DNA of 20,000 bases. Origin: an uncultured virus (IMG/VR IMGVR_UViG_3300034283_002562) (lineage: Duplodnaviria > Heunggongvirae > Uroviricota > Caudoviricetes). The position numbers were made by a program, and so were the translations under genes. Location of the stretch: IMG/VR virus record IMGVR_UViG_3300034283_002562. One strand, written 5' to 3'. Numbering within the stretch: the stretch's first letter is position 1; each line of letters starts with the position of its first letter. The notes under the pieces were generated by a model. That model was not told where the DNA came from and made no database searches. It was given only the letters and a program-made list of their open reading frames with translations. Below are positions 1,846 to 19,075 of the stretch, in pieces.

Positions 1846-1935
1846 TGGAGGAAGCGGTGAGATTCGAACTCACGGAACCTTGCGGTTCGCCAGTTTTCAA
1901 GACTGGTGCAATAGGCCATGCTCTGCCACACTTCC
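1846..1935 (-). tRNA. tRNA-Ser(TGA)
   Basis: Full cloverleaf, CCAGT-CTTGAAA-ACTGG, long variable arm, encoded CCA. Confidence 0.97.
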
Positions 1936-1972
1936 ATAATTTGGAGGCCGGTCTATGACCTGCCTCAATAAT

Positions 1973-2050
1973 TGGTACCCTCTCTCAGATTCGAACTGAG
2001 ACTATACGGTATCTAAAACCGTCTCCTCTACCAGATTGGGATAAGAGGGC
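1973..2050 (-). tRNA. tRNA-Leu(TAG), short variable arm
   Basis: ACGGT-TTTAGAT-ACCGT, T-arm CTCAG-TTCGAAT-CTGAG, CCA. Confidence 0.92.
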
Positions 2051-2137
2051 AAAATTTATTTATTCTAGTTTGCATAAACTATAGAATGCTAGATGTCGGT
2101 TGTTTTTAATACAAATCATGGATCTATATTAAGTGCT

Positions 2138-2743
2138 TTACTTTATAATTCTTTCAAAATGCACATCTGCCTCATTACCGGTATGACATTCGAGCTCTAT
2201 AAAGCATCTAAATCCTCGCTCTTCTAACCATTTAACCACATCTTCAGTTCGGTTGTCTGTATTTTTATACAAATCTGCTTTATATGCGGTTTCACACTTT
2301 CCACGTTTAATATTGGTTATTTTATCACCTAAACTACGCAAAACATTAAAATCATTACCTTGTGCATCAATCCACAAATATTCTACTTCACCTATACCAT
2401 ACATTTCCATAAATGTATCTAGCCGAAGAGTCATCACTCGTGCAATATCAGTGATTTGTAGATTCCTACCAGGCCAGTGCTCATAACGATCTTCTTTGAA
2501 TTCAAATAATGAAGAACAACCCCAATCTTCGACGCCTGCAATATTAAATTGTTTAAATCCATTTGTTAAATCAACAGCAGCTGGAATTAGATTCCAATTT
2601 GAATTGAATTTAAATTTATTTTGTAAATTTACAACTAATGCTGGCGTTGGCTCGAATGAATACACTATATTCCCAGGATCTTGAAGAAAAGTAGCGGTAT
2701 CATGCCCATCTTTTGCACCTATTTCTATAATTGTTTTATTCAT
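2138..2743 (-). CDS. FkbM-family SAM-dependent methyltransferase
   Basis: IIEIGAKDG, YSFEP, TLRLDTF, YLWIDAQGNDFNVL. Start trimmed to MNKTII because the extension overlaps tRNA-Arg. Confidence 0.9.
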   Translation of the reverse strand: MNKTIIEIGAKDGHDTATFLQDPGNIVYSFEPTPALVVNLQNKFKFNSNWNLIPAAVDLTNGFKQFNIAGVEDWGCSSLFEFKEDRYEHWPGRNLQITDIARVMTLRLDTFMEMYGIGEVEYLWIDAQGNDFNVLRSLGDKITNIKRGKCETAYKADLYKNTDNRTEDVVKWLEERGFRCFIELECHTGNEADVHFERIIK

Positions 2744-2761
2744 AATTCCCTTTTTTATGTT

Positions 2762-2840
2762 TGGCACCCTTGGAAGGACTTGAACCTCCGACAAACCCAC
2801 GTTCGTAGCGTGGTGCTCTAATCCACTGAGCTACAAGGGC
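2762..2840 (-). tRNA. tRNA-Arg(ACG)
   Basis: CCACG-CTACGAA-CGTGG, full cloverleaf, CCA. Confidence 0.96.
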
Positions 2841-2892
2841 TTTATTTCATCAGGATCTGCTTTTTACGGTTTCCTATCCACTAGAAGAACTC

Positions 2893-3573
2893 TTAAAGTT
2901 TGTGTTTGCAATTATCAAAGTGATATCGTTTCATATTTCCAATTCCACCTATTATATCACAATGAGGACAGCATACTTTAACTTGTGGTCCGCTTTTTAT
3001 ATCTTTGTTCCATGGAGTTTGCAATCCTGTTTTACCTTTATTCCATGGGGTTTGTCCAGTTTTTCCTTTCTTAATAGCAGACATTTTAGCTCTTTCTGCT
3101 GCTGTCCATATTTTTTTAGGTTTATTAGATCTTTGTTCTTTCAATATTGGCATTACTCTACCCAATCTCCAATTGTCAGGAATTGCAGTGTCAATATCAA
3201 TAGATCTATTTTCATGTCCGTTTGTTATCCAGCGTCTTCCATACATCGAGTTGTTGTGACCAGTTCTAGTTTTGGCAGCCAGCTGCATCTTTCGACGTAA
3301 CCAACCATATAACTTATTATTTCTATTTTGATTATCACTGGTCACAGTCATCATAGTAGCAGCATATACTAGTGAGTAATTATCATATATTTTAACCAAC
3401 AATAGATGTGCTACATAATGTTCTTCTGGCGTTAATTTAACCACATTGTCCGGGTCATCTTTCCCGCCCATACATCGTGGAATAATATGATGTTTCTCAA
3501 AGTATTCATTATCGAGAAACGTTCTATTTTTTCCACGATGTATTAATTTTTCATATATAATTTTATAGTTCAT
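2893..3573 (-). CDS. Free-standing HNH homing endonuclease (Mob-like) with PWNKG repeats and C-terminal Zn ribbon
   Basis: EKHHIIPRCMGGKDDPDNVVKLTPEEHYVAHLLL; WITNG; QTPWNK twice; CPHC..MKRYHFDNCK. Confidence 0.93.
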   Translation of the reverse strand: MNYKIIYEKLIHRGKNRTFLDNEYFEKHHIIPRCMGGKDDPDNVVKLTPEEHYVAHLLLVKIYDNYSLVYAATMMTVTSDNQNRNNKLYGWLRRKMQLAAKTRTGHNNSMYGRRWITNGHENRSIDIDTAIPDNWRLGRVMPILKEQRSNKPKKIWTAAERAKMSAIKKGKTGQTPWNKGKTGLQTPWNKDIKSGPQVKVCCPHCDIIGGIGNMKRYHFDNCKHKL

Positions 3574-3594
3574 ATAGTATTTATACTTATGAAC
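3568..3594 (-). promoter_or_regulatory. T4-type late promoter inside a hairpin masking the HNH start codon
   Basis: GTTCATA-AG-TATAAATA-CTA-TATGAAC; TATAAATA at 3585-3578; ATG lies in the 3' arm. Confidence 0.75.
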
Positions 3595-3648
3595 CTACGT
3601 TCCCGGCCTGGAATGCTAATTGTATGCGGTATAGATCCTAAAATTGTT

Positions 3649-3924
3649 TTACTTCAATTGTGACTTTCTAAACATTCGGTCCAATTTAGTATTGATATCT
3701 TTGCAGAGTTGTTCAGATCGTTCTGCTGCTTTTACTGCATTATCAACTTTTGAACTAACAGTTGATAGAGCGCGATTAGTATCTACTAATCCAGTACTCA
3801 ATGTTTTTTGATTTGTAGTAATTACATCGATTTCACCTTGTAATTTGGCGATATCTGTGTTTGTTGCACATCCAGTAACCAATGCTAAAGCACCAACCAT
3901 GAATAACATATTTAATTTTCTCAT
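3649..3924 (-). CDS. Lpp/OprI-like outer-membrane lipoprotein (coiled coil)
   Basis: Signal peptide with lipobox LVTG-C, heptad coiled coil, C-terminus KLDRMFRKSQLK ending in Lys. Confidence 0.8.
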   Translation of the reverse strand: MRKLNMLFMVGALALVTGCATNTDIAKLQGEIDVITTNQKTLSTGLVDTNRALSTVSSKVDNAVKAAERSEQLCKDINTKLDRMFRKSQLK

Positions 3925-3949
3925 TTTACACCTTTGTTAATTAAAATCA

Positions 3950-4040
3950 CAGGATGATATATTGTTTCGGAGCCGGGAGATTCGAACTCCCAGAAGATAC
4001 CCGCTTATCGGCTTCGGCATTTTTGTGCTGTAATCACCCT
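3950..4040 (-). ncRNA. Scaffold RNA copy 2 with tRNA-like insert lacking an anticodon arm
   Basis: AGGGTGATTACAGCA...TATCATCCTG. Insert: CGAAGCC/GGCTCCG stem, GATA-AGCGGG-TATC hairpin, T-arm GGGAG-TTCGAAT-CTCCC. Confidence 0.7.
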
Positions 4041-4050
4041 TATTAATCAG

Positions 4051-4464
4051 TTAAGATAATCGTTCTTTTTCTGATTCCATAAAGCGTGTTCGTTTTACAA
4101 GTGATAAAACGAATTCTGACTCAGCGATTGATTTGGAATCAAGATCAACTCGCAAGTTCAAGAAGTAAGAAACATCATTATGAACCAGTTTAATGGAACT
4201 ATAGTCTGTTACTTCCGCAGTGAATGATTTTGGAATTTGAATTACAACATCCATCAATCGTTCGAAATGTTTATCCGCATCAACAAAGTATTGTTCAACA
4301 AATGTTTTTAAGTGATGTGGTGTATTTCTTAATGTTTCGGATTTATAGTTTCTATAATTTCCGACTGAAACTGTTACCGCTTCAATAAGGTCAGTACCAG
4401 TGTATCTAGGATACTCAGGGATTAAGTTGTAAGGTTTTTTTACTTCTTGTTCAATTACTAGCAT
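4051..4464 (-). CDS. Hypothetical protein
   Basis: Open frame from MLVIEQ with GGA upstream; the longer ORF-track start overlaps tRNA-Gln. Confidence 0.75.
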   Translation of the reverse strand: MLVIEQEVKKPYNLIPEYPRYTGTDLIEAVTVSVGNYRNYKSETLRNTPHHLKTFVEQYFVDADKHFERLMDVVIQIPKSFTAEVTDYSSIKLVHNDVSYFLNLRVDLDSKSIAESEFVLSLVKRTRFMESEKERLS

Positions 4465-4492
4465 TATATCATTCCGATAATAGTTAAAAAAT

Positions 4493-4566
4493 TGGCAGGG
4501 ATACACGGATTCGAACCATGGATGACTGGATCAAAACCAGTTGTGTTACCACTACACCATATCCCA
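4493..4566 (-). tRNA. tRNA-Gln(TTG)
   Basis: ACTGG-TTTTGAT-CCAGT, cloverleaf, CCA. Confidence 0.96.
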
Positions 4567-4576
4567 ATTGTTATTA

Positions 4577-4695
4577 CAGGTTAGCATTTTAAGTTTTCCC
4601 AATTAAACTACATTAGTGACCAACCCTAACGCTGGGATTCGAACCCAGAACTTTCTTTTACAATAAGATTTAATAAAATTGCTGAAACTAACCTA
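4577..4695 (-). ncRNA. Scaffold RNA copy 3 with circularly permuted tRNA insert (YrlA-like topology)
   Basis: TAGGTTAGTTTCAGCAA...AAAATGCTAACCTG. Insert order: TCTT-ATTGTAA-AAGA, T-arm CTGGG-TTCGAAT-CCCAG, loop-closed acceptor CGTTAG/CTAATG, TA, D-arm GTTT-AATTGGGA-AAAC. Confidence 0.8.
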
Positions 4696-4734
4696 TTGGT
4701 CTTATTCGCTGGTGACTAGCCTCGAATATTCTGT

Positions 4735-4798
4735 CAGGATACACATTTTACGGGTTTGATTAGCTGTCAAATGTATGATTGTTGCTGTAGGTATCCTA
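4735..4798 (-). ncRNA. Scaffold RNA copy 4 with anticodon-like stem-loop (GCT)
   Basis: TAGGATACCTACAGCAA...AAAATGTGTATCCTG; TTTGA-CAGCTAA-TCAAA. Confidence 0.78.
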
Positions 4799-4816
4799 GA
4801 ACTGTTTATGCTATGT

Positions 4817-4844
4817 ATTATACATCATTTTTATTCATTGTCAA
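4817..4844 (-). promoter_or_regulatory. sigma70-type promoter
   Basis: TTGACA-16nt-TATAAT directly upstream of scaffold copy 4. Confidence 0.8.
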
Positions 4845-4853
4845 TATTTATTT

Positions 4854-4928
4854 TGGAGCGGGTAATGAGATTCGAACTCACGACATTCAGGTTGGCAACT
4901 TGAAGCTCTACCACTGAGCTATACCCGC
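4854..4928 (-). tRNA. tRNA-Gly(GCC)
   Basis: TCAAG-TTGCCAA-CCTGA, cloverleaf, TCCA end. Confidence 0.95.
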
Positions 4929-4935
4929 TCAAAAT

Positions 4936-5010
4936 TGGCGGACTGTACGGAATTTGAATCCGTGATACCACCGTGACAGGGTGGCGTGATAACCGCTTCA
5001 CTAACAGTCC
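4936..5010 (-). tRNA. tRNA-Asp(GTC)
   Basis: CCACC-CTGTCAC-GGTGG, GCCA end. Confidence 0.96.
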
Positions 5011-5132
5011 AAAATTGTTGAGTATCTAACATCATACAATACTCGGGAGACCTCTACCAGCCTCGTTTTTATTACTGAGCCTATCCGAAGATAGTGTTTA
5101 AAATGATATTAAGGTTGCCCAGCTCTAGAGTT

Positions 5133-5209
<77 letters not shown>

Positions 5210-5215
5210 ATAATT

Positions 5216-5380
5216 CTATTTAAACGGAGTTTTTTCACAGGCTAATGCATGATGATATGCTATTTTCATAGACTCATATTTTTCCGTTGCTTCGCTTAAT
5301 TGTTGCTGTAATTTTAGCATATCTTGTTCTACATAATCAAGATTTCTTTTAACGATATCCGATGTTCTTTTACCTGCCAT
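5216..5380 (-). CDS. Small coiled-coil hypothetical protein
   Basis: MAGKRTSD..LKLQQQLSEATEKY; AAGG upstream; start overlaps the end of 5370-5513. Confidence 0.6.
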   Translation of the reverse strand: MAGKRTSDIVKRNLDYVEQDMLKLQQQLSEATEKYESMKIAYHHALACEKTPFK

Positions 5381-5513
5381 ATATAGACCTTTTAGAAATA
5401 AAAGAATCACCCCAGTCGGTAGCATGAAATACCGCATATTTTTTAGATTTTTCACCATGTTTTTCATGGAATTTTTTAGTAGCTTCTTCGTTTACTATTG
5501 CGGTTCTTTTCAT
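5370..5513 (-). CDS. Small hypothetical protein (47 aa)
   Basis: Manual translation MKRTAIVNEEATKKFHEKHGEKSKKYAVFHATDWGDSFISKRSIYGR*; starts 2 nt after the upstream stop with GAGG RBS. Confidence 0.6.
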   Translation of the reverse strand: MKRTAIVNEEATKKFHEKHGEKSKKYAVFHATDWGDSFISKRSIYGR

Positions 5514-5515
5514 AC

Positions 5516-5890
5516 TTACCTCGCAAATCCACGATTTCTCAGTAATTGTGATAATTCATATTCGAATGTACCAAAATCAGACCTTTCACGCCCATAAATT
5601 GTATCAGGAACAATAATACCAATACTAGTCAATGCATTGTCAATCGATGGTTCATTAAAAATCGCCCATGGATATTCGTTTGTTTCATTGTTTAACAAAT
5701 TGACAATGTTTGCCATCTGTTCACTAGTACCACCATTCAATACAATTGCAGTTTTGTGGTTTTCAGCCCAATCTACCAATAGTTCGTTAGTTGTACCATA
5801 TTTGTTGTTGATCTCTTGCAGTGCATGCAAAGATTGTATACCGTGTTGTATAGAACTCAGGTACATGTTTGTTAAAAAATAAGCTCTCAT
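5516..5890 (-). CDS. Peptidyl-tRNA hydrolase 2 (PTH2)-like phage protein
   Basis: SSIQHGIQSLHA, DWAENHKTAIVLNGG and FNEPSIDNALTSIGII resemble the PTH2 pattern (Q..HA, W...K.IVL, T.IGI). Confidence 0.65.
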   Translation of the reverse strand: MRAYFLTNMYLSSIQHGIQSLHALQEINNKYGTTNELLVDWAENHKTAIVLNGGTSEQMANIVNLLNNETNEYPWAIFNEPSIDNALTSIGIIVPDTIYGRERSDFGTFEYELSQLLRNRGFAR

Positions 5891-5965
5891 AGTTTTCCTA
5901 TATGTTACTGAGTATTTATTATTTGAGGTTATCAATCATCTGGGTAGTTACCAAAACTAATTAGG

Positions 5966-6039
5966 GGTGACCGATAGGACTTGAACCCATAAAATTCTGA
6001 ATCACAATCAGGGTCGTCTACCAATTCCGACACGGCCAC
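5966..6039 (-). tRNA. tRNA-His(GTG), no encoded CCA
   Basis: Acceptor GTGGCCG/CGGTCAC, C73, CTGA-TTGTGAT-TCAG; followed by CCT; flanked by an ACTAATTAGG inverted repeat. Confidence 0.85.
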
Positions 6040-6057
6040 ACCTAATTAGTCTAATTT

Positions 6058-6542
6058 TATAATAAACCACACTACGGAAGGATTCGAACCTTCGGTTGCC
6101 GTCGCACTCAACACGCCAGTGTACCTCGATACGAATCGAACGTATCTTACCACCATTTATAGTGTAGTTTATTATATAATCATATAGTAAAGTGCATTAA
6201 ACGAGGGAACACGAATGCTACACATCCTCCTGTCTCCGGCCCTCAAGCTTAACATCCTTCTGGCCAGTGATGTTAAGGTGACTGATTAATACACTTTAAT
6301 ATAAAATTATATAGAAACACATGCTGAAGGACGAACGGCGTATTTCCATCGAAGAACTATATCTTTCTCATCGCCGTATAGCTTCCCGCACGATATAGTC
6401 TGAGTTGCGCTTCAGGATGTGTTTTTATATAATCATATAATAAAGCATACTACACGGAATTGAACCGTCTTCATTCAAGCCCGGAGCTCAAACTGTGATC
6501 CACACAACGCTGATCAGACGCTAATATGCTTTATTATATGAT
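6058..6542 (-). repeat. Four tandem long-stem cassettes with variable inserts (6058-6176, 6182-6303, 6307-6432, 6432-6542)
   Basis: Each is closed by a 16-19 bp AT-rich inverted repeat (e.g. TTATATAAAAACACAT/ATGTGTTTCTATATAA). Mismatches in the first two read as G-U on the minus strand. Confidence 0.8.
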
Positions 6543-6543
6543 T

Positions 6544-6619
6544 TGGTAGGACCGCCGAGACTCGAACTCGAATTCCCGGATTAAAAGTCCGGTGTTCTAA
6601 CCAATTGAACTACGATCCC
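6544..6619 (-). tRNA. tRNA-Lys(TTT)
   Basis: CCGGA-CTTTTAA-TCCGG, cloverleaf, CCA. Confidence 0.97.
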
Positions 6620-6662
6620 AAATTTTCTTGCCTTCTTTTTCTGTTTTTGTCTTTCGTTTCAT
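6597..6662 (-). CDS. Putative Lys-rich leader peptide running into tRNA-Lys
   Basis: AGGA RBS, MKRKTKTEKEGKKIWDRSSIG*; the TAG stop lies inside the tRNA D-loop. Confidence 0.5.
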   Translation of the reverse strand: MKRKTKTEKEGKKIWDRSSIG

Positions 6663-6685
6663 AATTATTTCCTATGTTGTTATAG

Positions 6686-6748
6686 CAGGATACGTTTTTA
6701 CTAGTTGAATTAAAAGTTCAGTGTAAATTGTTTGCTGAATGTATCCTA
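6686..6748 (-). ncRNA. Scaffold RNA copy 5 with Lys(UUU) anticodon stem-loop
   Basis: TAGGATACATTCAGCAA...AAAAACGTATCCTG; TGAA-CTTTTAA-TTCA. Confidence 0.8.
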
Positions 6749-6766
6749 AAACTGTTTATGCTGTTA

Positions 6767-6794
6767 ATTATACAGCATTTTTATACGTTGTCAA
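6767..6794 (-). promoter_or_regulatory. sigma70-type promoter
   Basis: TTGACA-16nt-TATAAT upstream of scaffold copy 5. Confidence 0.8.
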
Positions 6795-7107
6795 TTATTT
6801 TATCTGGATATTGTGCATCACGGCGTTCAATTTCAGCATATGGACTGTAGCCAGGCTGTAATTCCGTGATATTAGTAAATCCATTGGTTTCTGTAATCAA
6901 ACTATCATTAGAATCGATAGAACCACGATATTTACTACCATAACTACCTTCTAATTTACCAGTACTCGGATTAAGATCACCCCATTTAGTGTGATTACCA
7001 CCGATAACTTCAATATAGTAGGTTTTACCAGTTCGGTATGAATAAACAACATGTCTACCGGTATCTTCAGTTTTTGTAAAAAATTTCTTTCGGGTTTCTT
7101 CGTCCAT
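6781..7107 (-). CDS. Hypothetical phage protein
   Basis: MDEETRKKFFTKTEDTGRH..WGDLNPSTGKLEGSYGSKYRGSI; AAGGA RBS. Confidence 0.8.
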   Translation of the reverse strand: MDEETRKKFFTKTEDTGRHVVYSYRTGKTYYIEVIGGNHTKWGDLNPSTGKLEGSYGSKYRGSIDSNDSLITETNGFTNITELQPGYSPYAEIERRDAQYPDKIIDNV

Positions 7108-7125
7108 AATAGTTTCCTTTGTGTT

Positions 7126-7160
7126 TGGTGCTTTAGAAATGAATCGAACCTCTGTCTGCA
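7126..7160 (-). pseudogene. 3' remnant of a tRNA (T-loop, acceptor strand, ACCA)
   Basis: AGAC-AGAGG-TTCGATT-CATTT-CTAAAGC-A-CCA. Confidence 0.65.
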
Positions 7161-7201
7161 GTAAGTATAAATACAATAATATATTTATTAAAGGTTCGAT
7201 T
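7142..7201 (+). promoter_or_regulatory. Late promoter inside an RBS-sequestering inverted repeat
   Basis: AATCGAACCT (7142-7151) / AGGTTCGATT (7192-7201), with TATAAATA at 7166-7173. Confidence 0.72.
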
Positions 7202-7202
7202 T

Positions 7203-7913
7203 ATGCCAACTAAAATTTGCCCAAAATGTCAAAACACCCATATAAAACCTGGAATATTTTGTTCTCGATCCTGTGCCAATTCAAGAGGACCAAGATCAGA
7301 CGATTTTAAACAAAAAGTGTCAGATAAACTTAAAGGTACTCATTATCAAACAGAAGATGCTATAAGAAAACGAATTACATCTAGAGGATATACAGTAAGA
7401 TTTGACAAACCTAATCTAGTGTGTAAAGTATGCAACACTGATACCCTATCAAAATATAAGAAAACATGTTCTAAAGAATGTTATGACCTATTAAATAAAT
7501 CAAAATCACAACAACATCCAAATTGTGGCGGACAAAAACATACCCATCGTTCTAAAATAGTAAATATTAAAAATGAAGTATTTACTGCTGAAAGTTCTTA
7601 CGAAGTAAGATTATCTACTATTTTAAACGAATTAGATATTTATTGGGTAAGACCGTCATTTATGTGGTATGTTGATGACAAACTCCAAAAACGTCGATAT
7701 TATCCTGATTTCTTTTTACCACAGTTTAATGTGTATCTTGATCCGAAAAACGAATACCTCATTAAATCCGATATACAAAAAATTATAAAAGTCTCCGATC
7801 AAAATAAATTAAACATTGTAGTAATTGGTGATCGACACATCAATGCTGCATCAATTCATCATTTAATTTATAATATGTTTTCAGATACTACCGGAGTTCT
7901 CCTCTACTATTAA
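7203..7913 (+). CDS. Putative homing endonuclease: Cys-rich Zn-finger repeats plus PD-(D/E)xK nuclease domain
   Basis: CPKC..FCSRSC, CKVC..TCSKEC; ESSYE..RRYYPDFFLP..VYLDPKN. Confidence 0.82.
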   Translation: MPTKICPKCQNTHIKPGIFCSRSCANSRGPRSDDFKQKVSDKLKGTHYQTEDAIRKRITSRGYTVRFDKPNLVCKVCNTDTLSKYKKTCSKECYDLLNKSKSQQHPNCGGQKHTHRSKIVNIKNEVFTAESSYEVRLSTILNELDIYWVRPSFMWYVDDKLQKRRYYPDFFLPQFNVYLDPKNEYLIKSDIQKIIKVSDQNKLNIVVIGDRHINAASIHHLIYNMFSDTTGVLLYY

Positions 7914-7927
7914 CTAAATCTGTAAAC

Positions 7928-8004
7928 TGGTAGGACCATTCAGATTCGAACCGAAGACATCCTGCGTGTAAGGCAGGTGCTCTAACCAACTGAGCTATGG
8001 TCCT
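7928..8004 (-). tRNA. tRNA-Val(TAC)
   Basis: CCTGC-CTTACAC-GCAGG, cloverleaf, CCA. Confidence 0.97.
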
Positions 8005-8035
8005 GTTTATAGTTACAGTTAGTAGGGCTTAAATT

Positions 8036-8058
8036 GCCTACCATTAGACGACTAAAGC
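8036..8058 (-). pseudogene. 5' remnant of a tRNA (acceptor strand and D-arm)
   Basis: GCTTTAG-TC-GTCT-AATGGT-AGGC; GCTTTAG is complementary to CTAAAGC of the 7126 remnant. Confidence 0.5.
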
Positions 8059-8059
8059 T

Positions 8060-8237
8060 ATAATTGTTGCTTTCTTATTCCCGGCTATCACAGAGGTTGC
8101 CACTTGTACTTCATGGTTCTCAACTTGCAGGTTCTGGCGGAACAGAATTCTCGTATTGCCAACGTGCTTTTGGTTCAAAGCATACCACCCGTGTGTATCA
8201 CCACACTTCTTATCCTCTGGGTCAGAGTATCCGTTGA
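8060..8237 (-). ncRNA. Candidate structured ncRNA
   Basis: GC-richer intergenic stretch; CAGAGG/CCTCTG long-range pair, GTGTG-GTGA-TACAC and TTCTG-TTCCGC-CAGAA hairpins. Confidence 0.45.
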
Positions 8238-8516
8238 TTAGACGGTTCGTTCTTCAAGTACTTGTTGTTCCCATTTACTTTTTAAATAGATTTTTTTACC
8301 ATGCAACCAATATTCTTCTTCTGTGAAATTAGTAATAACAGCAGGGCCGTGTTCATTATGATATTTCCCATCTTGGCAATAACAAGTTCTGCGGCCATCA
8401 TATCTAATAATTGCTGGTCCATCTGTGTTATGCGATCTTCCATTTTTCATAAAAACTGTTGTTGTATCAGATACGCTAATAGTGAGTTCAGGATTGTCTG
8501 GGTTAATATATTCCAT
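8238..8516 (-). CDS. Hypothetical protein with H-x-x-x-GPA repeats
   Basis: GRSHNTDGPAII and GKYHNEHGPAVI..EYWLHG, a repeat type common in large phages. Confidence 0.8.
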   Translation of the reverse strand: MEYINPDNPELTISVSDTTTVFMKNGRSHNTDGPAIIRYDGRRTCYCQDGKYHNEHGPAVITNFTEEEYWLHGKKIYLKSKWEQQVLEERTV

Positions 8517-8541
8517 AATTACCAAATTGTAAAGTTAAAAT

Positions 8542-8617
8542 TGGTGCTACCGACTGGGATCGAACCAGTATAGCTGGATTTTCAGTCCAGTGCATGAACC
8601 ATCACTGCCACAGTAGC
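8542..8617 (-). tRNA. tRNA-Phe(GAA)
   Basis: CTGGA-CTGAAAA-TCCAG, CCA. Confidence 0.94.
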
Positions 8618-8625
8618 AAAATTAT

Positions 8626-8680
8626 CAGGATACGCTTTTTCATTTTTCAAGAATGTTTTTTAATTGCTGCATGTATCCTA
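8626..8680 (-). ncRNA. Scaffold RNA copy 6 with Ser(UGA)-like anticodon stem-loop
   Basis: TAGGATACATGCAGCAA...AAAAGCGTATCCTG; CATT-CTTGAAA-AATG; TTGCAA-17-TATAAT at 8720-8692 upstream. Confidence 0.78.
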
Positions 8681-8702
8681 AAACTGTGTAAATTATAACG
8701 TA

Positions 8703-9233
8703 TTATTTGAACATTTGCAAGATATTTTTCATAGCATCTGTATTACTATCCCATGTTTGTCCGCCAAATCGTCCGTATTCTATACGGTTATCAGCAGACC
8801 ATTTATTATAATAATCGGACAATTCACCATTGCATTCCAATAGTGTATCACCGTAATTGATTATCATTACATTAGGATTCATGCAATCACGAATTGAATA
8901 AACCTTCTCAAACGCTTCTTTAATACCCATGCCATGTTGTATTAGTACTAGAATAGCAGTTGCTGTACTTCTACTAACACCAGCATGACAATGAATTAAA
9001 ACTTTATCAGTATCAGTAAATGTTTTACTGAATTCTAAAATATTTTCAATATTTTGTAAAGTAGGATGTTGATATCCTTCTAATGGTACTTCAATATCAT
9101 GAAATCTTTCTACGTGATGTTCCACATCACAATCAAATACTTTGGTATTTGGATCAACAATGCTAATGACTTTAGTATGGGTTGGTGCCCATAAACTTGC
9201 TTCGTATAATCCTGATATAGTTATATCTAACAT
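8703..9233 (-). CDS. Cys-based protein tyrosine / dual-specificity phosphatase
   Basis: VLIHCHAGVSRSTA (CX5R), FHDI acid loop, R..MNPN. Confidence 0.92.
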   Translation of the reverse strand: MLDITISGLYEASLWAPTHTKVISIVDPNTKVFDCDVEHHVERFHDIEVPLEGYQHPTLQNIENILEFSKTFTDTDKVLIHCHAGVSRSTATAILVLIQHGMGIKEAFEKVYSIRDCMNPNVMIINYGDTLLECNGELSDYYNKWSADNRIEYGRFGGQTWDSNTDAMKNILQMFK

Positions 9234-9313
9234 TTTTTACCTCAAAAATTGGCGGGGCTATGGTTGCTGTTAAAATCCACAACTGGATTTCATCTTTTTT
9301 GCCCCATTATATT

Positions 9314-9389
9314 TGGCGACCCTACCCGGTGACGATCCGGGTTTACTATCGTGAAAGGATAGTGTTCTACCAACGTAAACTATAGGGTC
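9314..9389 (-). tRNA. tRNA-Glu(TTC) with atypical T-loop and bulged acceptor
   Basis: CTATC-CTTTCAC-GATAG; T-arm CCCGG-ATCGTCA-CCGGG; acceptor GACCCTA/TAGGTC; 5' end overlaps the endonuclease stop. Confidence 0.85.
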
Positions 9390-10216
9390 TTATTTTTCGT
9401 ATATTGGTTTCTACCCGTAATATTCCCAGGTGTTACCCGTTTTCCATTACAAGTTCTTGAACAATATACATTAATTGTTTTTAATTTTTTATCACGTGTA
9501 AAATTTTTACCACAATGTGAACATGTGTACTCGTATAAAGGTTTATACCCATCGTATAGTGTATAATATTTTTCAGTATTATAAGTTTCTTTTACATATG
9601 TAAAAGCATATTTCAAATCATTAAATCGTAAAACATGTACATTATATCCAAAACTTTCAGCAACCTGTGTTTTTAAATCCACTGATTTTTGATTTTCATA
9701 ACCTTTTGTTTCTATTATAGTTTTATTATCCGATAAAATAAAATCAGGGTAATATTTAATACCATTTCTTTCCAAATAACCGTCAAATCTAGAAAATTTA
9801 ATATTATGATCTAAATTGTATATTACCCAGCATAATTCATATGTTGATCCACAATAAATGCCATTATAATATCCTGATTTTGATCTACCAGAACCATTTC
9901 TATATCCACCTATGTGTTTGGAACTACATTCTTTTGAACAATATTTTTTATTACTCGTTTTTATTATTCTAAAATCTGTTCCACACTCTACACATTGTCT
10001 AATCTCACGAATAGCAAATTCTTTGCCTTTTGTAGAGGCAGGTTTAATACCTAGCTTCTTAAATGTAAGAGATGTTTTTATCTTTTGTTCTTCACTTGGT
10101 TTCCATCCAGAGTCTTTCCGTTTTCTGTTATTATATTTCGCTGAACACGATCTATTACAAAACTTTTTTGCATCTTTACTGATTAAAGTGTTTCCACATT
10201 CTAAACAATTATTCAT
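9380..10216 (-). CDS. Putative homing endonuclease: Zn-finger repeats plus PD-(D/E)xK nuclease domain
   Basis: CLEC..FCNRSC, CVEC..YCSKEC, CSHC..YCSRTC; GSTYE..YYPDFIL..IIETKG. Same architecture as 7203-7913. Confidence 0.85.
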   Translation of the reverse strand: MNNCLECGNTLISKDAKKFCNRSCSAKYNNRKRKDSGWKPSEEQKIKTSLTFKKLGIKPASTKGKEFAIREIRQCVECGTDFRIIKTSNKKYCSKECSSKHIGGYRNGSGRSKSGYYNGIYCGSTYELCWVIYNLDHNIKFSRFDGYLERNGIKYYPDFILSDNKTIIETKGYENQKSVDLKTQVAESFGYNVHVLRFNDLKYAFTYVKETYNTEKYYTLYDGYKPLYEYTCSHCGKNFTRDKKLKTINVYCSRTCNGKRVTPGNITGRNQYTKNKTL

Positions 10217-10224
10217 CTGTAATC

Positions 10225-10247
10225 TCCATATAGAGTATTTATATGGA
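10225..10247 (-). promoter_or_regulatory. Late promoter inside a hairpin masking the GGAG RBS
   Basis: TCCATATA-AATACTC-TATATGGA(G); TATAAATA at 10243-10236. Confidence 0.78.
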
Positions 10248-10303
10248 ATTGAACTTTATTGCATTTTTTGATTATAGTGTTCTAACCATTAAACTACCAG
10301 GAT
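10246..10303 (-). pseudogene. tRNA remnant resembling the 5' half of tRNA-Glu
   Basis: ATCCTGG-TA-GTTT-AATGGTTA-GAAC-ACTAT...AAGTTCAATTC; shares TAGAACACTAT with 9314-9389. Confidence 0.65.
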
Positions 10304-10310
10304 ATAAACT

Positions 10311-10422
10311 TTTATATAGAAACACACTCGTTTCTGAGCTTTCGGTATGTATGCCTACACTTTAGGATAGCCCCTGCGTCCAGTTGCTCAGTATCCCTAC
10401 CGTGAATGTGTTTTTATATAAA
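10311..10422 (-). repeat. Long-stem cassette with the same arms as 6307-6432
   Basis: TTTATATAAAAACACA...TGTGTTTCTATATAAA around an unrelated GC-richer insert. Confidence 0.8.
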
Positions 10423-10423
10423 T

Positions 10424-10502
10424 TGGTCTCCGTGGTAGGATTTGAACCTACGAATCCTCTCGATCCCAAATCGAGCGCTCTACCAAACTGAGCTACACGG
10501 AG
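10424..10502 (-). tRNA. tRNA-Pro(TGG)
   Basis: CTCGA-TTTGGGA-TCGAG, CCA. Confidence 0.96.
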
Positions 10503-10515
10503 ATAATTAAAAAAT

Positions 10516-10608
10516 TGGTGGGTGTCCACGGATTCGAACCGCGAATGTTTACCACGAGGGACTTGATTTACAGTCAAGAGAGGCACACGCCATAGCCTCA
10601 AGACACCC
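10516..10608 (-). tRNA. tRNA-Tyr(GTA) with extended D-arm
   Basis: CTTGA-CTGTAAA-TCAAG, long variable arm, D-arm GAGGC-TATGGCGTGT-GCCTC, CCA. Confidence 0.9.
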
Positions 10609-10614
10609 AATAAC

Positions 10615-10820
10615 TTATAACACTCTCCTGCTATGCATTTTAACTGATTCGTAGTCAGTGAAGAGTGTATATTAAAACATACTCACTTTAACTTGTCAAG
10701 AACCGTAATTCTTAATGCTGATCTAGTATGTTTTAATATTAAAACACACTGGTGGGTCGTTCAAATCCACTGTCTACATTCCGTAGAAATCAAATTCTAC
10801 TATTCTCAATGTGTTTTAAT
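10615..10820 (-). repeat. Three tandem stem cassettes (10615-10670, 10671-10737, 10738-10820)
   Basis: ACACTCT/AGAGTGT; ATTAAAACATACT/AGTATGTTTTAAT; ATTAAAACACA/TGTGTTTTAAT. The first contains ACTGA-CTACGAA-TCAGT. Confidence 0.75.
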
Positions 10821-10963
10821 ATTTCTAGGTTTTTCCACACACCACACAAGGTGCTTCTCATCCCCTAGACCGCCCTCATTAATAGCTCATTTTTATAGTG
10901 GTGAGCAGAATCGCGTTTTCTAATAGAGACCAATATTTCATTCTCTATACCACTGTACTTCAT

Positions 10964-10992
10964 ATTATAATCTGTGTTTCTGTGTCTGTCAA
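10964..10992 (-). promoter_or_regulatory. sigma70-type promoter
   Basis: TTGACA-17nt-TATAAT. Confidence 0.8.
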
Positions 10993-11018
10993 CTACTTTT
11001 TTTAAGGAGTCTAAAACT

Positions 11019-11050
11019 AAAAAACCCTGAAAGTGAAAACTTTCAGGGTT
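11019..11050 (-). terminator. Intrinsic terminator (attenuator)
   Basis: 12-bp stem AACCCTGAAAGT-TTTC-ACTTTCAGGGTT followed by a T-tract. Confidence 0.9.
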
Positions 11051-11078
11051 CTTTGAAAAATTAACTTATAATATTAAA

Positions 11079-11216
11079 TTATGTCTTCAAAGAACCCTCA
11101 CGATACTCCGGTGTGCGATCATTAATTAAACTAAATGCACACCATACAGACGCAATCGAGCCGCCTTTTAAGGTTGATTGTAGTTTAAATTGTTGATGTA
11201 ATGATTGCATTTCCAT
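11079..11216 (-). CDS. Putative attenuator leader peptide (45 aa, all 20 amino acids)
   Basis: MEMQSLHQQFKLQSTLKGGSIASVWCAFSLINDRTPEYREGSLKT*; AAGGA upstream; its last codons are complementary to the terminator 5' arm. Confidence 0.75.
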   Translation of the reverse strand: MEMQSLHQQFKLQSTLKGGSIASVWCAFSLINDRTPEYREGSLKT

Positions 11217-11267
11217 TTGTATCAATTTTCCTTTAATTTCATCGGTTGACCCCAACTGATGAAGCGT

Positions 11268-11296
11268 ATTATACAATTATTTAGTTTCTTTGTCAA
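11268..11296 (-). promoter_or_regulatory. sigma70-type promoter of the leader/tRNA operon
   Basis: TTGACA-17nt-TATAAT. Confidence 0.82.
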
Positions 11297-11392
11297 GCAC
11301 TTTTTAAAAAAGTTTTTATTTTTTTTATAATTGTATTTTTATTTAGTAAAAATTCTTATTTACTAGTCAAAATAGCTGTTTTTCAGCATATT

Positions 11393-11845
11393 TTAGTAGA
11401 GTGTTAAGAATTCTACTACATTGGTGTGAAGTTCATTATAAATTTTATCACCCCATGTTACAGCATCTTGTTCAGTAACCCTAAAATTATAGTTTTCTGG
11501 TTGAATGAACAATTTATTTGTATCATTGTATCTGCTTTTTTCAATGGTGTCAACCCATATTGTGATAGTTGGGTTAATAATTTCCCTAAATTCAGGTAAT
11601 GGTGCTACCATATCTATTAGTATATAGCCATTTTCAACCTCATCAGCAAAATTTTTCATTCGTTGTGCTTGACGAAGTCTCCCATCATATGAAAAATCCC
11701 AATCATTAAATTTTTCTCTTACTTCATCGGCATTGTACCAATGAACTTGGTAATCTGCAAGTTCTAATTTCTTTTTTAGTTCATTGGCTAGGGTAGTTTT
11801 ACCAGAGCCCGGTAATCCCATGATCAAAATTGTTTTTTTACTCAT
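11393..11845 (-). CDS. Adenylylsulfate-kinase-like P-loop kinase
   Basis: ILIMGLPGSGKTTLA, NADEVR, WDFSYDGRLRQAQRM, VAP...RE. Confidence 0.85.
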   Translation of the reverse strand: MSKKTILIMGLPGSGKTTLANELKKKLELADYQVHWYNADEVREKFNDWDFSYDGRLRQAQRMKNFADEVENGYILIDMVAPLPEFREIINPTITIWVDTIEKSRYNDTNKLFIQPENYNFRVTEQDAVTWGDKIYNELHTNVVEFLTLY

Positions 11846-11944
11846 ATAATTCATCAGTTTCTGAAAAATGGCTTCAAACAAGCCTTACGAATGTATTTAG
11901 TACCATTTGGTTGACTGTCTATTAAAAAATCAGATTTTTTTACA

Positions 11945-12523
11945 TTACAAAGATACAGGATCCAACAATACCGGTGTATCACCACGTACCATAATGTTAG
12001 ATTCTCTTAAATCTAAATCATAGACGATATTATCGCACCAATACTTCAAAAATTTGTAAATCCACGGGAATTTATTGATTGATCTCTTTTGATGATTACT
12101 GAGTTCATGATATGATCGTCGATCAATCAAAGAATAGGCCATATCATCTATAACAACTGAAATCTTATCATATTCACCAGGTAATAACGGGTGTAGTTTC
12201 TCTAATCTCACCAGATATGTATCTGAAGTAATTTGTATTATCCCACCTTTAATTTTAGGTAGATTAGGATTGTCCTGATTGCTTAATACGTATCTAATGA
12301 AGCACAAATAGGCATCATCACCACGAAATATCTTAAACACCCAAGAATAACCAGGATACATATATGCAGAACCATTTGAACCACTACCAAGATGTTCAAA
12401 ACCATAATGATTCATTACATCTTTCCATTGTTCGAATTGATCATCTAATTTTACATCCCTACAATCTTGCTCAAATATTTCTTTAGCTTTAATGTATAAA
12501 GAATTTCTTTTATACCCAATCAT
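11945..12523 (-). CDS. Protein-kinase-like enzyme (phage Ser/Thr kinase type)
   Basis: LGSGSNGSAY, VFKIF, LEKL, DLDLRESNIM, LLDP. Confidence 0.85.
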   Translation of the reverse strand: MIGYKRNSLYIKAKEIFEQDCRDVKLDDQFEQWKDVMNHYGFEHLGSGSNGSAYMYPGYSWVFKIFRGDDAYLCFIRYVLSNQDNPNLPKIKGGIIQITSDTYLVRLEKLHPLLPGEYDKISVVIDDMAYSLIDRRSYHELSNHQKRSINKFPWIYKFLKYWCDNIVYDLDLRESNIMVRGDTPVLLDPVSL

Positions 12524-12544: not shown

Positions 12545-13076
12545 ATAATACTAAAGGAGAACTAACGTTCTCCTGTTCTTCGCTATCGCTCATCACATTT
12601 TTTATAATTTCTATCTTACCTATTCAACTAGATTACGATTTACTTTTGCCCCCATAAAGGGAGCAAAAAAATAATTTCAACTGAGTTGACTTCATTAGTA
12701 GAGTTACACTGGTTACAGAGGCGGTTGGCCGATACCTCGAAGTGCGTTTTTGTTTCTGTTGTCCAACGGTGGCATTAGGAAAATACTCTACCATATTCCT
12801 AATACGTCCAGGAATTACCTGGTCATTTAGCCTTTTTATCTTTTGTTTAAACATTCGAAATTGGTTGTACGTAGGCGTATCCAATCATCATTTGCATCAC
12901 AATGTGCAAGTAGTCGAATGAGTCGCTGCTTCTACTCAGCTGTTTCCCTCCATGCGAAGAACATTCCATTTCCTGGGGCACCTGTCAAACCACCGGTGCG
13001 AGTGTATCAGAAGTGTATAGCCTGAAAAAGTGCCTGTGAAATCATATTTATCGTTGCCTAAATTTATTTGCCTAAT
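12545..13076 (-). other. Approximately 500-nt structured intergenic element (candidate large ncRNA or origin)
   Basis: GC-richer, many hairpins, no convincing ORF; TAGACA-17-TATAAT promoter at 13111-13083. Confidence 0.45.
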
Positions 13077-14453: not shown

Positions 14454-14528
14454 TGGTGCACCCGATGGGATTCGAACCCATTGTCGCAAGTTTTAGAGGC
14501 TTGTGCTATACCTAGTAGCTTCGGGTGC
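14454..14528 (-). tRNA. Amber suppressor tRNA (anticodon CTA)
   Basis: GCACCCG/CGGGTGC-A-CCA; D-arm GCTA/TAGC; CAAGC-CTCTAAA-ACTTG; T-arm ATGGG-TTCGAAT-CCCAT. Confidence 0.85.
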
Positions 14529-18868: not shown

Positions 18869-19075
18869 ATATCTATACCGCACACCCTTGCGACTTCAGC
18901 CTGTTAAGGTAGAGCTACTAAATAGAACTCTATGACTTCTATATGTTAGCATAGATAAATTAAATATCTAACTATGGTTCAATAATGGCGTACCACTCCT
19001 GATCATTTATACTATGTACCAGATTTAAGTTAGACTATTTGCTTATTATAGCATTATATTTATATTTGTCAAGAA

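Follow-up and report, generated by a model that had tools for sequence, protein, structure and literature searches.

A candidate leader-peptide attenuator with a complete amino-acid set ahead of tRNA gene arrays in uncultured phages

Introduction

Leader-peptide attenuators are known from enterobacteria, where they include trpL, hisL, leuL and pheL as well as the multivalent thrL and ilvL. Phage tRNA genes are thought to offset codon mismatch, loss of host tRNAs and tRNA-cleaving defences, and to our knowledge the timing of their expression is largely unknown. Here we describe a short leader open reading frame (ORF) that encodes all 20 amino acids and is followed by two competing RNA hairpins at the head of a tRNA gene array, in a 20,000-nt stretch of an uncultured Caudoviricetes virus from a lake (IMG/VR record IMGVR_UViG_3300034283_002562; "the window" below means this whole stretch). 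We consider it likely that this element acts as a ribosome-dependent transcription attenuator of the leader-peptide kind, gating transcription into the tRNA array or, in the window, supplementing it.

The element shares with trpL- and hisL-type attenuators a short leader ORF, an intrinsic terminator and an antiterminator that shares bases with the 5′ arm of the terminator. In our modelling it also shares their polarity, by which a ribosome at the leader end favours termination and a stalled ribosome favours readthrough. A previous sequence-only reading of this DNA had described the geometry as trp/his-type, which holds for the antiterminator/terminator alternative and fails for the 1:2 hairpin, of which no conserved counterpart was found. 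Unlike the trp and his leaders, moreover, the phage leader has no codon run and samples each of the 20 amino acids about once (H, V, W, C, N, D, P and Y are singletons in the window peptide), and its stop codon lies in the tip of the antiterminator. What follows is a structured RNA, elsewhere a 53-residue ORF, and phage tRNA genes rather than biosynthesis genes. There was no sequence or Rfam relation to these attenuators (His_leader scored 25.1 bits against a threshold of 49, with the terminator alone aligned). The mechanism is best read as belonging to the ribosome-dependent attenuation class, outside the narrow trp/his type.

T-box riboswitches act without a ribosome, through direct binding of one specific uncharged tRNA. 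They resemble the phage element in being antiterminator/terminator switches, with tRNA charging as their signal and genes of the translation apparatus as their targets. However, the phage element contains a conserved open frame, and the T-box covariance model gave no match at its gathering score, nor at E values up to 10 within 10600-11400. The system closest in function is whiB7 (wblC) of mycobacteria and actinobacteria, in which an upstream ORF (uORF) combined with an antiterminator and terminator forms a general translation-stress sensor (PMC10274678). In the part of that report drawn on here, whiB7 is activated by knock-down of genes for 18 of the 20 amino acids, for tRNAs and for synthetases, and uORF composition sets the amino acids that are sensed, single residues of the uORF having been removed in that work; the Mycobacterium smegmatis uORF encodes 19 of 20, the uORF is variable and alanine-enriched and lacks several amino acids in M. 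tuberculosis, and completeness is not reported there as conserved (PMC10274678). The likeness is functional only, as no sequence similarity to the phage leader was detected, and whiB7 controls a cellular drug-resistance transcription factor, whereas the phage element precedes tRNA genes and is followed by no WhiB-like gene. A full-text literature search, with subscription journals mostly outside its coverage, found no published account of attenuators before tRNA genes.

Results and discussion

Leader ORF and competing helices in the window

The unit is composed of the following features.

11268-11296, minus strand: sigma-70 consensus promoter P1 (TTGACA-17-TATAAT), 12/12 match
11229-11233, minus strand: Shine-Dalgarno-like AAGGA, 12 nt 5′ of the ATG; anti-Shine-Dalgarno duplex -5.6 kcal/mol
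11079-11216, minus strand: leader ORF of 45 codons plus TAA, with all 20 amino acids and 31 distinct codons
11084-11098, minus strand: region 2, the antiterminator 5′ strand formed by the last leader codons; 15-bp helix with 11059-11045
11062-11081, minus strand: antiterminator apical stem of 7 bp, its 5′ strand opening with the TAA stop
11045-11059, minus strand: region 3, the antiterminator 3′ strand, overlapping 13 of the 16 nt of the terminator's extended arm
11019-11050, minus strand: intrinsic terminator with a 12-bp stem, TTTC loop and T6; -18 to -21 kcal/mol

The leader ORF runs from an ATG at 11216 to a TAA at 11081-11079 and is richer in GC than the window (38.5% versus 34.75%). The consensus promoter (11296-11268), the 45-codon ORF with all 20 amino acids, its GC-rich codons and the 12-bp terminator all lie where the sequence-only reading had placed them, and its claim that the last leader codons have a 13-nt complement overlapping the terminator 5′ arm proved exact: AGGGTTCTTTGAA (11098-11086) is perfectly reverse-complementary to 11057-11045. 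The terminator arms are AACCCTGAAAGT (11050-11039) and ACTTTCAGGGTT (11034-11023), with T6 at 11024-11019, and six bases (11050-11045) are common to antiterminator and terminator.

Predicted energies place the antiterminator at -24.0 kcal/mol and the terminator at -18.4 kcal/mol, or -20.9 kcal/mol with region 2 masked. The minimum-energy fold of the unmasked RNA contains the antiterminator and only a 6-bp remnant of the terminator, and masking region 2 lets the complete terminator fold. This switch of helix agrees with the exclusivity that had been claimed for the two structures. The duplex between the ORF tail and the downstream RNA (-22.5 kcal/mol, z -5.2) was matched by 0 of 200 shuffles, and the whole leader transcript (-70 kcal/mol) is far more structured than its shuffles (-46.5 ± 3.8 kcal/mol, z -6.2). 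The terminator was absent from the 24 sites listed by a consensus scan of the window; our guess is that pairing of an A-tract with the T-run, which uses up the T-run, explains why the scan missed it.

Relatives of the leader

A word-based protein search recovered four small peptides, and a profile search of 1.84 billion representative proteins gave 18 matches at E ≤ 0.001, of which 16 were peptides of 43-72 residues. Back-translated patterns run on viral and metagenome contigs found 5 + 2 + 51 loci, which together with the window make 59 loci with 45 distinct peptides (individual loci carry L numbers below). Contig and database peptides combined amount to 55 distinct uncut peptides from uncultured phages. 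Their consensus is like M-Q/K-x..H..C.AKQAGFMPxxW.AI.S..NDRTPE..G(S/V).E, and the window lineage is a divergent branch, with 48% identity to L023. Two large proteins among the profile matches, P0009 (1219 aa) and P0010 (559 aa), aligned over several short stretches each and are presumed spurious.

GenBank phages gave no DNA match and only chance-level tblastn hits (E 0.7-0.9), and 34 pattern matches in 185,579 prokaryote species genomes included no relative. Synteny of the upstream kinase gene gave 16 loci, with the element present only in the near-identical L001, whose terminator differs in the loop and at one stem position alone. Neither the gathering score nor a limit of E up to 10 gave an Rfam family for the element, and none was found for its relatives; SQ1002, the trpB motif and His_leader were sub-threshold alignments to the terminator alone and were rejected. 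The peptide has no family in PHROGs, and its homologues carry no precomputed Pfam domain. A SecM-like arrest motif (F-x4-W...P) was dropped, as the W-to-P spacing differs among members.

Conservation and covariation of the competing helices

In all 42 distinct 3′ parts, the strongest pairing of the ORF tail with downstream RNA overlaps the terminator 5′ arm by 4-14 nt, with a median energy of -26 kcal/mol and a median z of -5.3 (200 shuffles each). A terminator hairpin with T-run (-12.6 to -20.9 kcal/mol) is likewise present in all 42. The antiterminator hairpin is three-tiered in 40 of 40 distinct sequences, with helix P1 (GGGGTCC/GGACCCC), helix P2 (GGAG/CTCC) and an apical helix P3. Helix P1 forms 6-7 of its 7 pairs in all 40 and starts 21-25 nt 5′ of the stop in 32 of 39 sequences. 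The apical P3 helix differs wholly in sequence between lineages, is still paired, and contains or abuts the stop codon. In the window lineage all strands have been remodelled (AGGGTTC/GAACCCT, with a new terminator) and the architecture is kept.

Position 1 of helix P1 is informative for both structures. It is G-C in 22, A-T in 14, G-T in 2 and C-T in 2 of the 40 sequences, and its 3′ member, the last base of the P1 3′ strand, is shared with the terminator. Where this base is C, both region 2 and region 4 (the terminator 3′ arm) carry G (22/22); where it is T (18 sequences), region 2 carries A in 14, G in 2 and C in 2, and region 4 carries A in 12 and G in 5. The shared base covaries with its partners in both helices, a pattern that points to antiterminator and terminator being mutually exclusive. 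These counts come from per-sequence parsing; RNAalifold and column counts were of no use, and because MAFFT shifts P1 and variant terminators by one base between lineages, each sequence was parsed singly.

A conserved 1:2 hairpin was not found across the family, as the mean probability that region 2 is paired with upstream RNA, before region 3 exists, was 0.28. A silent leader should therefore read through rather than super-attenuate as in trp. One locus, L056 (3001-3156), is a deletion variant without region 3, the terminator 5′ arm or a terminator; its frame passes from region 2 into the terminator 3′ arm and encodes 52 residues before a TAG stop. L063 starts alike and is ended by a contig edge. 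L056 could be a natural copy that is "always on" or dead, or it could stem from faulty assembly.

Completeness of the amino-acid set

Complete 45-residue stretches make up 0.5-1.3% of phage ORF windows and 1.6-2.3% of random draws. All 20 amino acids in one 45-residue leader, taken singly, is rare and not extreme, and given that completeness of a single leader is only mildly above chance, we took the question to the relatives. Among the 55 distinct peptides, 42 contain 20 kinds of amino acid, 12 contain 19 (without L, V or C) and one contains 17. Stop-free nucleotide shuffles of the family leaders were complete in 4.2% of cases, compared with 36 of 44 observed. With the 16 conserved columns fixed and the rest redrawn from the family's pool of variable residues, 9.3 of 55 peptides are expected to be complete, and only 3.9 of 55 when the redrawn positions follow phage proteome composition. 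Chance alone would make 4-17% of the peptides complete.

The rarest residues show how the set is maintained. Histidine occurs exactly once in 53 of 55 peptides, across 6 alignment columns. Cysteine is single in 41 peptides, double in 9 and missing from 5, and its sites spread across 13 columns. Rare residues appear to relocate without being lost, and judged by these comparisons completeness is a family trait under selection. The check on related phages proposed in the sequence-only reading came out on its side: the ORF is retained, completeness is far above chance and the exclusive helices show covariation, in every case ahead of tRNA arrays.

Conservation of the reading frame

The ATG is invariant in 40 of 40 aligned sequences and the leader stop is TAA in 44 of 44. 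Spacing from the ATG to the Gly-Phe-Met block takes the values 45, 48, 51 and 54 nt (multiples of three in 44/44), and that from TGG to GATCG has six lengths (18-33 nt) that are multiples of three in 42 of 44, the remaining two showing a spacing of 8 nt that probably reflects a mis-set anchor. Alternative frames are open in 0 of 44 (+2) and 6 of 44 (+1) sequences. Changes at the three codon positions number 41/42/53, and a third-position bias was discarded as proof of coding (p 0.38); 72 changes are non-synonymous and 27 synonymous. This pattern speaks against a conserved protein and would fit a frame that needs only to be read.

An anti-Shine-Dalgarno duplex of -4 kcal/mol or stronger precedes 46% of 41 leaders, compared with 36% of 396 long-ORF starts; given the long spacing to the ATG, we count this ribosome-site signal as neutral evidence. 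We infer that the leader is translated.

Proposed mechanism

We modelled the effect of ribosome position by hiding 30 nt per ribosome at each codon and computing pair probabilities for 39 sequences, an equilibrium treatment of what is in reality a kinetic decision. With the A site 11 to 1 codons 5′ of the stop, the shared pairs of the terminator prevail in 90-100% of the sequences, and with the stop codon in the A site the terminator is favoured in 77%. Without a ribosome the antiterminator is favoured in 30 of 39, as it is in 62-85% when the stall lies at least 13 codons 5′ of the stop. The sharp change of favoured helix 12-11 codons before the stop suggests that ribosome position decides the helix. 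The polarity put forward in the sequence-only reading is upheld in the model insofar as a ribosome close to the stop tips the balance to the terminator, and one that is missing or stalls early tips it to the antiterminator; it has to be revised for stalls in the last ~10-12 codons, which would terminate.

In the mechanism that we propose, RNA polymerase would start at promoter P1 and transcribe the 45-codon leader. Region 2, the last codons, could pair with region 3 into the long antiterminator hairpin with the TAA at its tip, or region 3 could pair instead with region 4 to form the terminator. A ribosome following close behind the polymerase, and placed on the last ~11 codons or the stop as regions 3 and 4 emerge, would cover region 2; the terminator would then form and a ~245-nt leader RNA would be released. 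If the ribosome were absent, or delayed in the first ~33 codons, the antiterminator would form first and transcription would read through into the conserved RNA and the tRNA genes. As selection appears to keep nearly every amino acid represented in the leader, a ribosome slowed at virtually any type of codon would register, and the element would therefore report general decoding speed rather than one amino acid. We infer terminator function, the coupling kinetics and the trigger, which may be decay of host tRNAs once the host is shut off, the anticodon nucleases of host defences, starvation or codon mismatch.

Position ahead of tRNA arrays

Two features downstream of the terminator bear on what readthrough would reach.

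10964-10992, minus strand: second consensus promoter P2, just past the terminator, 12/12 match
1846-10608, minus strand: 14 tRNA genes in an array, all on the same strand, with ORFs between them and promoters inside the array

The window array encodes tRNAs for Tyr, Pro, Glu, Phe, Val, Lys, His, Ile, Asp, Gly, Gln, Arg, Leu and Ser. Across the family, 52 loci have sufficient flanking sequence; the first same-strand tRNA lies within 1100 nt in 50 of them and at 1156 nt in two. The 3 kb after the leader contain a median of 11 tRNAs, none of them on the opposite strand, while the 1 kb upstream is free of tRNAs in 47 of 59 loci. In 35 of 47 distinct loci the leader ATG is preceded, at a distance of 25-124 nt (mostly 44-62 nt), by a promoter matching at 11/12 or better. 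Past the terminator, promoters are scarce: a 12/12 match occurs in 5 of the 47 (the window sub-lineage only), a 10-11/12 match in 2 and nothing above 9/12 in 40, so that in these 40 loci the downstream genes would depend on readthrough.

RNA-library contigs

Contigs from three freshwater metatranscriptome runs (one sample) match the leader region from 11085 or 11096 to 11265 or 11268 without difference. Their upper ends lie 4-7 nt from the expected start of the P1 transcript, a weak hint that 11265-11268 marks a 5′ end. One RNA-library contig (10765-11003) spans promoter P2. No contig in four runs covers 11004-11084, which proves nothing. Wastewater runs X4-X6 contain only small shares; X4 yielded three pieces of 90-99% likeness elsewhere in the window, and these runs carry no habitat information.

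Weighing the attenuator against other explanations

Several observations weigh against an attenuator that gates the tRNA array in response to any amino acid, or narrow what such an element could do. In the window, P2 follows the terminator and perfect promoters lie at 6794 and 4844 inside the array. The sequence-only reading had itself named the promoter at 10992-10964 (12/12) as a caveat, and its proposal of readthrough into the tRNA cluster, which fits the same-strand array that follows, is curtailed in reach by these three promoters; the window switch can only add to tRNA transcription, and gating would be at most partial. In the model, a ribosome stalled within the last ~10-12 codons promotes termination, and in 9 of 39 sequences the terminator is favoured at equilibrium even without a ribosome. 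All 20 kinds of amino acid occur before the last 11 codons in only 11 of 55 peptides, and before the last 9 in 29 of 55; Glu is confined to the tail in 35 of 55, as are the sole Pro and Tyr of the window. With residues found only in the tail, and tail stalls predicted to terminate, the statement that any amino acid gives readthrough is too strong. Because the relatives share ancestry, the completeness counts are not independent trials; clustering the peptides at 70% identity gives 24 groups, with a complete member in 18 of them. The Shine-Dalgarno-like element stands 10-14 nt from the ATG and is missing in the L044 group. The RNA data are assembled contigs from one sample that give no strand or ends, and DNA carry-over is possible.

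The leaders contain 35.05 distinct codons in ~46, compared with 27.4 ± 2.8 in gene windows of the same loci; this diversity is only ~1.2 standard deviations above random sequence (32.2 ± 2.4), and we make no strong claim on it. Leader codons are not enriched for the phage's downstream tRNAs (0.418 versus 0.442 in background genes), and the own-tRNA codon share exceeds background in 12 of 28 loci (tRNA sets limited to 3-kb flanks). On these sets we rejected the idea that the leader favours codons decoded by tRNAs of the phage itself, and the element resembles a sensor of general speed more than feedback on the phage tRNA set.

Two blocks inside the ORF, GCCAAACAGGCAGGCTTTATGCC and ATGATCGYACACCAGAG, are nearly invariant, third codon positions included, which goes beyond pure codon sampling and argues that something else reads the RNA or the peptide. 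This is what would be seen if a protein, tRNA or small molecule bound the conserved ORF blocks and picked the helix, with translation secondary; the structure of the transcript (z -6.2 versus shuffles) and changes unskewed to third positions are in keeping with such a factor, which the basic 53-residue ORF found after the terminator in 38 of 59 loci could be. However, a factor-controlled switch does not predict completeness above all three nulls, or His and Cys relocating without loss, and the frame is kept open by in-frame indels, with an invariant ATG and a TAA in the apical helix. There is also no Rfam match, T-box included, and the window has no homologue of the 53-residue ORF, and we regard this explanation as unlikely. 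We find it harder still to believe that the locus is an ordinary small gene whose 45-residue peptide is the product and whose long hairpin merely stabilises the mRNA 3′ end. Its own consensus promoter and terminator, the second promoter that serves the downstream genes of the window, and the peptide motifs AKQAGFMP.W and NDRTPE, conserved across 55 sequences, would all suit a gene, and leader peptides active in trans exist, such as peTrpL. Yet there is no third-position or synonymous excess (41/42/53; 27 versus 72) and no Pfam-type or PHROG family, the shared base covaries three ways, which speaks for a pair of alternative helices and against a single stabiliser, and the element always precedes tRNA arrays, in 40 of 47 distinct loci with no promoter above 9/12 past the terminator.

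The least probable of the explanations that we weighed is a stand-alone regulatory RNA of ~245 nt, in which the frame is tolerated or dual-function and readthrough is noise. The arguments from frame and completeness count against it as they do against a factor-controlled switch, the position relative to tRNA arrays is fixed, and the antiterminator breaks the terminator in the minimum-energy fold, which would be odd for the terminator of a plain small RNA. Such an RNA would nevertheless match the strong structure and the promoter-plus-terminator unit, which resembles that of the neighbouring Polynucleobacter-1 RNA, and the contig word depth of 4-11 over the leader against 2-6 over its flanks, contig depth being a poor measure. 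Leader-peptide attenuation remains the explanation that we favour.

Other features of the leader transcript and its neighbourhood

Three further structured elements lie in or after the leader transcript.

11239-11262, minus strand: predicted 5′-terminal hairpin of the leader transcript (fold prediction)
11110-11143, minus strand: internal hairpin in the ORF, GGTGTGC (11143-11137) with GCACACC (11116-11110), read from the sequence
10609-10957, minus strand: conserved structured RNA between the switch and tRNA-Tyr, first after the terminator (alignment of 12 loci)

The stem of the 5′ hairpin differs in the close relatives L018, L020 and L022 with pairing mostly kept (judged by eye), and the hairpin was not seen in distant relatives. 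The internal hairpin is possibly a pause or spacer hairpin. A C-to-T change in L018 leaves a G-U pair in it, and the TGG...GATCG.ACACCA blocks around it are nearly invariant in the family, so that there is no covariation signal to test.

The conserved structured RNA is ~230-350 nt long, with invariant loops AACGNGA, CACTNTAAACAT, GGGCGG and GGATG, and compensatory changes occur in the stems of at least two hairpins (12-locus alignment, read by eye). It matches no Rfam family. In the window it begins at promoter P2; elsewhere it is reached only via switch readthrough, lying between terminator and first tRNA also in L020, L023, L029, L040, L042, L058, L059, L061, L065-L068 and L070. In 38 of 59 loci the terminator is directly followed by a basic, probably helical ORF of 52-57 residues (the 53-residue type) with a strong Shine-Dalgarno sequence, which starts ~70-83 nt past the leader stop in L024-L074 (e.g., L051:3185-3343); it has no family (best PHROG E 0.007) and no homologue was found in the window. 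In L018, L019 and L022, a 176-residue ORF lies ~120 nt past the leader stop, its ATG 4 nt after the -10 hexamer of the second promoter; it would be carried on a leaderless mRNA replacing the conserved RNA.

Perfect 12/12 promoters number eight in the window, all on the minus strand (19206, 19072, 16615, 13824, 11296, 10992, 6794 and 4844), and weaker promoter-like matches are at shuffle level (97 versus 92.3). Transcripts from 6794 and 4844 open with similar ~100-nt sequences (6660-6767 and 4700-4817, minus strand; ..CATAAACAGTT.TAGGATAC...GTATCCTG..) that fold into a long hairpin ahead of tRNA-Lys and tRNA-Gln, and these may be paralogous leader or processing elements. An HNH endonuclease ORF (9380-10216, minus strand) lies within the tRNA array.

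Upstream of the switch, all on the minus strand, are two kinases just before it, namely a P-loop kinase (11393-11881; PHROG "kinase", E 2e-22) and a protein kinase resembling the T7-type inhibitor of host transcription (11945-12523, E 1e-8). A Polynucleobacter-1 RNA (12849-13004; 64.6 bits, threshold 37) stands behind an 11/12 promoter (13111-13083) and is a hint that the host is a betaproteobacterium of fresh water. ARAGORN labels as "Pyl" a tRNA of amber-suppressor type with anticodon CTA (14454-14528), which is also found in L020 and L021. A phage tmRNA (18532-18912) with the tag peptide ANDSKFEFYTVDGIFDAIAA matched the permuted and betaproteobacterial models and is preceded by the perfect promoter at 19072; L056 and L063 have a tmRNA ~900 nt upstream of the leader.

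Biological meaning

Tentatively, and with somewhat less than even confidence, we suggest that these phages carry a "one of each" test strip of host decoding capacity, on which delay at nearly any codon switches on the tRNA array. A switch governed by ribosome speed would give simple feedback, in which slow decoding leads to tRNAs being made. The family would then be a natural, compact sensor of general translation capacity whose design rule is one of each amino acid, with rare residues free to move but kept. If this is true, it would be the first attenuator known for tRNA genes and the first natural translation sensor with completeness as a selected trait.

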